Positions 61,741-62,128 of a stretch of DNA of 64,000 bases are shown here, piece by piece. Source of the stretch: Escherichia coli. Its GTDB lineage: Bacteria; Pseudomonadota; Gammaproteobacteria; Enterobacterales; Enterobacteriaceae. Within the stretch, counting starts at the first letter, position 1. Each line of letters begins with the position of its first letter. The stretch is from assembly GCF_024700885.2 (NCBI RefSeq), contig NZ_CP117016.1; one strand, written 5' to 3'. The translations under genes and the position numbers were made by a program. The notes under the pieces were generated by a model, which was not told the origin of the DNA, did not search any database, and worked only from the letters and a program-made list of their open reading frames with translations.

Positions 61741-62128
61741 CGATACCTTCCATTTGACTGGCTCACTTTTTATGATGATGCCGGTGCATTTATCTCCAGC
61801 GCCAGACTTTCTATCTCAACGCCATACGTTACATTTTTGGTAATATCCATCAGCGTCAGTGCATTTAGTCCCACTGCCAGACTGTCTTTTATGGCCTGGA
61901 ATGCCGGGCCAGTACGATGACGTAGTATCACTCCGGCTCAGTTGCACCACTGACCACCACATCACCTTCTGCTGCAATCGCCTGCATCAGGGTATAAGGG
62001 GTTATGGCCACCGGACTACCAAACGGCTGCCCGCCCTCTTTCAGTTTATGTGTCAGCTTTTCCGCAAGATCTGACGGCGGCGCCGCCCTGACAACATCAT
62101 AGTGTTTAAATGCCATGGTTCTTTCCAC
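61741..62128 (-). pseudogene. Candidate frameshifted phage gene
   Basis: 66-aa ORF (61928..62128) continues after its stop in another frame for about 52 more codons (to about 61770); together they would give a roughly 120-aa product. Confidence 0.3.

Follow-up and report, generated by a model that had tools for sequence, protein, structure and literature searches.

Prophage-encoded NanS-p is an active Neu5,9Ac2 esterase which supports growth on mucin-derived sialic acids and of which EHEC genomes carry several copies each (PMC8065619; PMC10462455), and a link has been described between the number of nanS-p copies and growth on Neu5,9Ac2 derived from mucin (PMC8065619). In the case of the phi24B esterase gp84, the DUF1737 domain (residues 2-57) is reported in a 2026 preprint to stay bound to the capsid as a hexamer following proteolytic processing, its binding being restricted to the flat face-centre hexons, and approximately 2,500 of approximately 3,000 DUF1737 proteins are reported to be single-domain (bioRxiv 10.64898/2026.04.10.717836). 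Two full-length genes served as references in the present analysis, namely yjhS of phage JLK-2012 (L003:4121-5974, 617 aa) and its counterpart in an Stx1a phage (L004:2377-4227). The JLK-2012 gene specifies a DUF1737, a SASA and a DUF6645 domain, the centre of its product matching NanS (PDB 3pt5) and its end matching the NanS-p C-terminal domain (PDB 6yp6). The locus described here lies within a window of 64,000 nucleotides of Escherichia coli DNA (contig NZ_CP117016.1), and is very probably a decayed, deletion-derived copy of the prophage 9-O-acetyl-N-acetylneuraminate esterase gene nanS-p (yjhS-like).

The locus is apparent as two reading frames. The upstream ORF (61928..62128 (-)) comprises 66 aa when read from a GTG and terminates at a TGA (61930..61928), and a second frame, which is -1 relative to the upstream ORF, is open from just before a GTG at 61931 to a stop at 61770, corresponding to 53 codons. 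These coordinates and lengths agree with those of an earlier sequence-only reading, in which the 66-aa ORF was reported to be followed by approximately 52 open codons in a different frame. Because an open stretch of 52 codons has a probability of approximately 8% per frame in random sequence, the two-frame pattern alone is not significant, and it is homology which gives it meaning. Alignment with full-length and partial homologues placed the start at the ATG at 62116, giving a true N-terminal piece of 62 aa, to which the 66-aa ORF adds four extra codons from the GTG at 62128. The second frame, when read as an ORF from the GTG at 61931 (61770..61931), similarly consists of a C-terminal fragment of the ancestral gene together with seven out-of-frame junk codons. 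The component features are compiled in Table 1.

Table 1. Features of the nanS-p remnant, with positions given relative to the window
Feature	Position	Strand	Basis or remark
Whole nanS-p (yjhS-like) deletion remnant	61770..62116	-	347 nt left of ~1,854-nt gene; blastn, two colinear pieces
N-terminal fragment, 62 codons + TGA, complete DUF1737	61928..62116	-	Pfam PF08410, phrog_143, homologue alignment
Later TGG>TGA stop mutation, Trp codon 63 of full-length NanS-p	61928..61930	-	Comparison with full-length genes and L006/L007
Deletion junction CTGGCCCGGCATTCCA	61897..61912	-	Three-way alignment of window, N-site and C-site
C-terminal fragment, final 46 codons and stop codon of NanS-p, from the end of the DUF6645 / PDB 6yp6 domain, out of frame	61770..61910	-	phrog_143, 6yp6, DNA identity

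The upstream ORF constitutes a complete DUF1737 domain (Pfam PF08410, E=4.3e-14, profile positions 1-53 of 53). It aligns with positions 1-58 of the PHROG family phrog_143, which spans 634 positions and to which the second ORF aligns at positions 582-632. The second ORF also aligns weakly with the last 31 residues of the NanS-p structure 6yp6; when searched against Pfam, it produced no match beyond noise (MoaC, E=0.16) and no DUF6645 match, and its homology is visible only at the DNA level and with PHROGs. The SASA domain was absent from both ORFs in the Pfam search, in which the full-length relative possesses PF03629, and a PDB sequence search with the upstream ORF returned nothing, such that no deposited structure of a DUF1737 domain was identified in this way. 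At the DNA level, window positions 61891-62116 match the 5′ end of genes annotated as yjhS, 9-O-acetyl-N-acetylneuraminic acid deacetylase or SASA family carbohydrate esterase in Stx-converting and other lambdoid phages, and positions 61650-61912 match the 3′ end and downstream spacer of those same phage esterase genes. The identity of these pieces to the two ends of full-length yjhS/nanS-p (phage JLK-2012 and Stx1a phages) is 95-96%, with nt ~8-220 and 1712-1854 of full-length yjhS being covered. The sequence-only reading had asked whether a single homologue spans both frames, and the 617-aa NanS-p/YjhS does indeed match both. Several PHROG families of unknown function (phrog_2036, 9498, 12088, 6393, 3591, 16581, 16885 and 19075) represent fragments of the NanS-p family phrog_143, and nanS-p genes in truncated or split form are therefore frequent among the phage annotations on deposit.

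Pairwise blastn against the full-length gene resolved the remnant into two colinear pieces, which overlap by 16 nt at the junction in the window and are offset by 1,507 nt in the reference. Three-way alignment revealed that the junction, CTGGCCCGGCATTCCA (61912..61897), is a hybrid between two direct repeats of 16 nt, which are imperfect, being identical at 14 of 16 positions. The first of these repeats, (C/T)TGGCCGGGCAGTCCA, is located at nt 205-220 of the full-length gene, where it provides codons for LAGQSN, the SGNH/SASA catalytic block (block I), and the second, CTGGCCCGGCATTCCA, is located at nt 1712-1727, where it provides codons for VAGPAFQ. The spacing between the repeats is exactly 1,507 nt (502 codons plus 1 nt) in both full-length references examined and, as this value equals 3n+1, the 3′ end that was kept lies out of frame, and this yields the two frames observed by the earlier reader. 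The deletion starts inside the LAGQSN codons, and it removed the GQSN catalytic serine block, the whole of the esterase domain and the greater part of the lectin-like domain at the C terminus. In addition, the TGG of Trp codon 63 in full-length genes is a TGA in the window; in the absence of this substitution, the 5′ frame would run for a further 11 codons before reaching a stop, ending in YYVIVLARHSRP.

We propose that a single ancestral event, involving illegitimate recombination or replication slippage between the two direct repeats, removed codons ~70-571 and threw the 3′ end out of frame, and that a later TGG>TGA mutation truncated the 5′ piece at codon 63 in most descendants, including the prophage in this window. 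The involvement of slippage in the deletion is inferred from the repeats, and the deletion is presumed to have preceded the nonsense mutation, since TGG-type alleles (L006 and L007, described below) possess the same junction. The suggestion of an inactivating frameshift made in the sequence-only reading was, therefore, correct insofar as one disrupted gene lies in two frames; its cause, however, is a 1,507-bp deletion coupled with a separate TGG>TGA mutation rather than a simple frameshift. The protein of approximately 120 aa which had been envisaged through joining of the frames never existed; the corresponding parts of homologues are 502 codons apart.

A difference in length of 7 bp (651 versus 658 nt) relative to nearly all close relatives was considered as the cause of the frame change and rejected, as it sits in the AT-rich spacer (62129-62369) which precedes the DUF1737 ORF and not at the junction; this indel is unrelated to the change of frame. 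A 75-aa E. coli protein, P0074, which is not encoded in the window, commences with DUF1737 and has an end which near-matches the holin C terminus. It looks as though a separate and larger deletion, also at this locus, had fused nanS-p to the holin gene, which shows that the locus tends to undergo deletions.

The deletion architecture was detected in 849 of 5,426 complete E. coli genomes (about one in six, ~16%), based on a 400-nt query spanning the junction and a requirement for at least 80% coverage in a single place. As the search tool does not join pieces which are 1.5 kb apart, these 849 matches represent deletion alleles. The deletion allele was also present in four phage records, and E. 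coli MLI114 provided the sole 100% match over 651 nt. Ten alleles, chosen to cover the range of identities, all possessed the identical junction, a finding which indicates a single ancestral event. The TGA at codon 63 was present in eight of these 10 deletion alleles, the TGG being retained in L006 and L007, which have a different upstream context without iraM. On the identical MLI114 sequence and its relatives, the NCBI RefSeq annotation pipeline (PGAP) records a pseudogene described as [quoted passage not shown] and at the same identical locus it assigns the second frame to a 53-aa hypothetical protein. The locus is an ordinary and widespread deletion pseudogene, derived from a well-known prophage gene and already annotated as such.

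The prophage is lambdoid, with lambda-type morphogenesis genes specifying a gpA terminase, a lambda-family portal, an S49 protease, capsid E, FI, the tape measure and J. In the order of late transcription, Q (just outside the window) is followed by tRNAs, small ORFs, iraM (antisense), the nanS-p remnant, a P21-type holin gene, ydfR and genes for lysozyme and Rz. Full-length nanS-p occupies the same slot, between the Q/tRNA/moron region and the holin gene, in JLK-2012, and in Stx1a phages it lies downstream of stx1AB. An Rfam scan identified no RNA family inside the remnant, and a promoter and terminator scan returned no more promoter-like sites than were obtained with shuffled sequences, with none on the strand of the gene.

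Several neighboring features were also observed. A terminator-like 12-bp hairpin with a T-run (61659-61687 (-)) is located between the nanS-p remnant and the holin start, and is conserved in phages with the full-length gene as part of a 95% JLK-2012 match; late transcription antiterminated by Q would need to read through this hairpin. The lysis cassette (60179-61620 (-)) includes a P21-type class II holin (PF04971) with a MDQMEK dual-start-like N terminus and a lysozyme with a hydrophobic N-terminal segment, and looks like a pinholin/signal-anchor-release (SAR) endolysin pair. A DUF1327/YdfR gene (61056-61400) is located between the holin and lysozyme genes, and it is overlapped in antisense by a 90-aa ORF (60818-61090 (+); PGAP hypothetical protein WP_001351274.1), which is possibly an over-call. 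Positions 62370-62705 (+) harbor a 111-aa gene which is antisense to the late operon and whose product PGAP, in the identical E. coli locus, names as the anti-adapter protein IraM. This iraM gene, whose product has no Pfam match, is located in the "moron" slot, flanked by the phage tRNAs and by the lysis cassette; it is frameshifted in the relative L011 and absent from L006 and L007. Just upstream of iraM, in late-transcript terms, a strong match to the Rfam sRNA STnc100 (RF02076; 62731-62920 (-)) scored 132 bits compared to a gathering score of 47, and overlaps a stretch which PGAP marks as a partial hypothetical pseudogene. Two phage tRNAs (63617-63693 and 63800-63875 (-)) are located downstream of Q, one being tRNA-Arg(TCT) and the other having a CAT anticodon; the latter is called Met by ARAGORN and Ile by PGAP, and is presumably of the lysidine-modified type.

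The two pieces of the remnant differ in variability. Among seven distinct TGA-type alleles, 10 of the 138 nt of the C-terminal fragment are variable, nine of these sites being non-synonymous (including a stop) and one synonymous, such that this piece drifts freely. The second ORF is interrupted by a TAG in L005, and PGAP omits or pseudo-flags it in L005 and L010, with the N terminus annotated as lost in the latter. Judging from this drift, the 53-aa downstream ORF is most likely a non-functional relic. Furthermore, as the catalytic domain is absent, esterase function is certainly lost. The upstream ORF, in contrast, is intact in all 10 sampled alleles and has three variable sites in 186 nt (3/186 versus 10/138; Fisher p=0.019). 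The N-terminal piece may not be completely dead, given that its ORF is intact and less variable than the 3′ fragment, with a complete DUF1737 and the native ATG.

A role for this piece has to be weighed. The 62-aa DUF1737-only ORF, if expressed from the late transcript, may still specify a decoration protein reduced to its capsid-binding minimum, the loss being confined to the esterase and lectin parts, yet we regard this explanation as improbable. It is equally doubtful that the deletion allele has been kept in such a proportion of complete E. coli genomes because the module still performs this, or some other DUF1737-mediated, role. The end of the ORF at residue 62 is close to that of the processed phi24B form, and the occurrence of the allele in phage records, as well as the intactness and lower variability of the upstream ORF, would be consistent with retained function. 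However, two of its three variable sites are non-synonymous, and the lower variability could stem from recombination history in a small sample. The allele of the window's lineage, moreover, carries W29G at a Trp residue which is invariant in the 15 other aligned homologues. A search of a 5.8-billion-protein collection with the 62-aa ORF returned mostly partial DUF1737 fragments at contig ends, among which stand-alone genes and truncations are indistinguishable, so that it informs only on the conservation of Trp29. The head genes of the prophage are, in addition, of the lambda type (Phage_cap_E, lambda portal, S49 protease) and not of the T=9 phi24B type, and PGAP calls the locus a pseudogene.

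It is considerably less plausible that programmed -1 frameshifting, or termination-reinitiation at GTGA, joins or couples the two frames into a functional product. Both frames lie within the late transcript, and the upstream-ORF stop and the GTG of the second ORF overlap in a GTGA (61931..61928), as is typical when translation is coupled; this overlap, however, was created incidentally when TGG secondarily mutated to TGA, and it is missing in L006 and L007, in which the frame reads on for 11 codons. The sole window permissible for a shift (12 nt, GAG CCG GAG TGA) contains no X XXY YYZ slippery heptamer, and the junction RNA (61840-61960 (-)) folds no better than shuffled sequences (MFE z=-0.63). 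The second ORF, which is broken in L005 and drifting at a ratio of non-synonymous to synonymous sites of 9:1, encodes only the last strands of the jelly-roll domain plus the junk codons, and in none of the homologues are the two parts contiguous. The programmed frameshift entertained in the sequence-only reading consequently finds neither a slippery heptamer nor significant structure nor frames conserved among alleles. Finally, an artefact of sequencing or assembly, or frames which are open by chance in non-coding DNA, for which the probability of approximately 8% per frame of a 52-codon open frame might speak, can be dismissed as next to impossible in light of the identical junction in 849 independently assembled complete genomes and several phage records and of the strong homology to both nanS-p ends, the latter also ruling out the chance origin previously suggested.

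The deletion remnant is ordinary, being neither a point frameshift nor a recoding site, and its importance lies mainly in keeping annotation clean. A single nanS-p pseudogene accounts for both the 53-aa hypothetical protein (WP_001598874.1 and relatives) and the 66-aa ORF, which should be taken as its two ends and not as a frameshifted gene of approximately 120 aa. As the prophage would give its host no sialate O-acetylesterase, this distinction is relevant for counts of functional nanS-p copies. The exact, repeat-mediated junction additionally represents a handy lineage marker for this variant of the lysis module.

With respect to single-domain DUF1737 proteins and the processed phi24B gp84 piece, the N-terminal fragment is similar in possessing a complete DUF1737, its own start, a similar length and the ITPYTLMQA segment, which presumably holds the anchoring Tyr. 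It differs from these proteins in that it arose through truncation of a full-length esterase gene, carries W29G and is accompanied by lambda-type head genes. Were it to function, it would constitute a natural "domain-only" derivative mimicking the proteolytically processed form on phi24B capsids. Chromosomal NanS (YjhS, PDB 3pt5) is a homologue of the central part which the ancestral gene has lost, and none of this esterase core is left here. The closest described system remains NanS-p itself (z1466 of 933W, vb_24B_21/gp84 of phi24B, and yjhS of JLK-2012 and Stx1a phages), which is encoded at the same late-operon locus just upstream of the holin gene. The remnant shares approximately 92-94% amino acid identity with NanS-p across the N-terminal DUF1737 and 95% nucleotide identity across the last 46 codons, whereas it differs in being devoid of codons ~70-571 (the GQSN block, SASA and most of the lectin-like domain), in the out-of-frame position of its 3′ end and in its extra nonsense codon.
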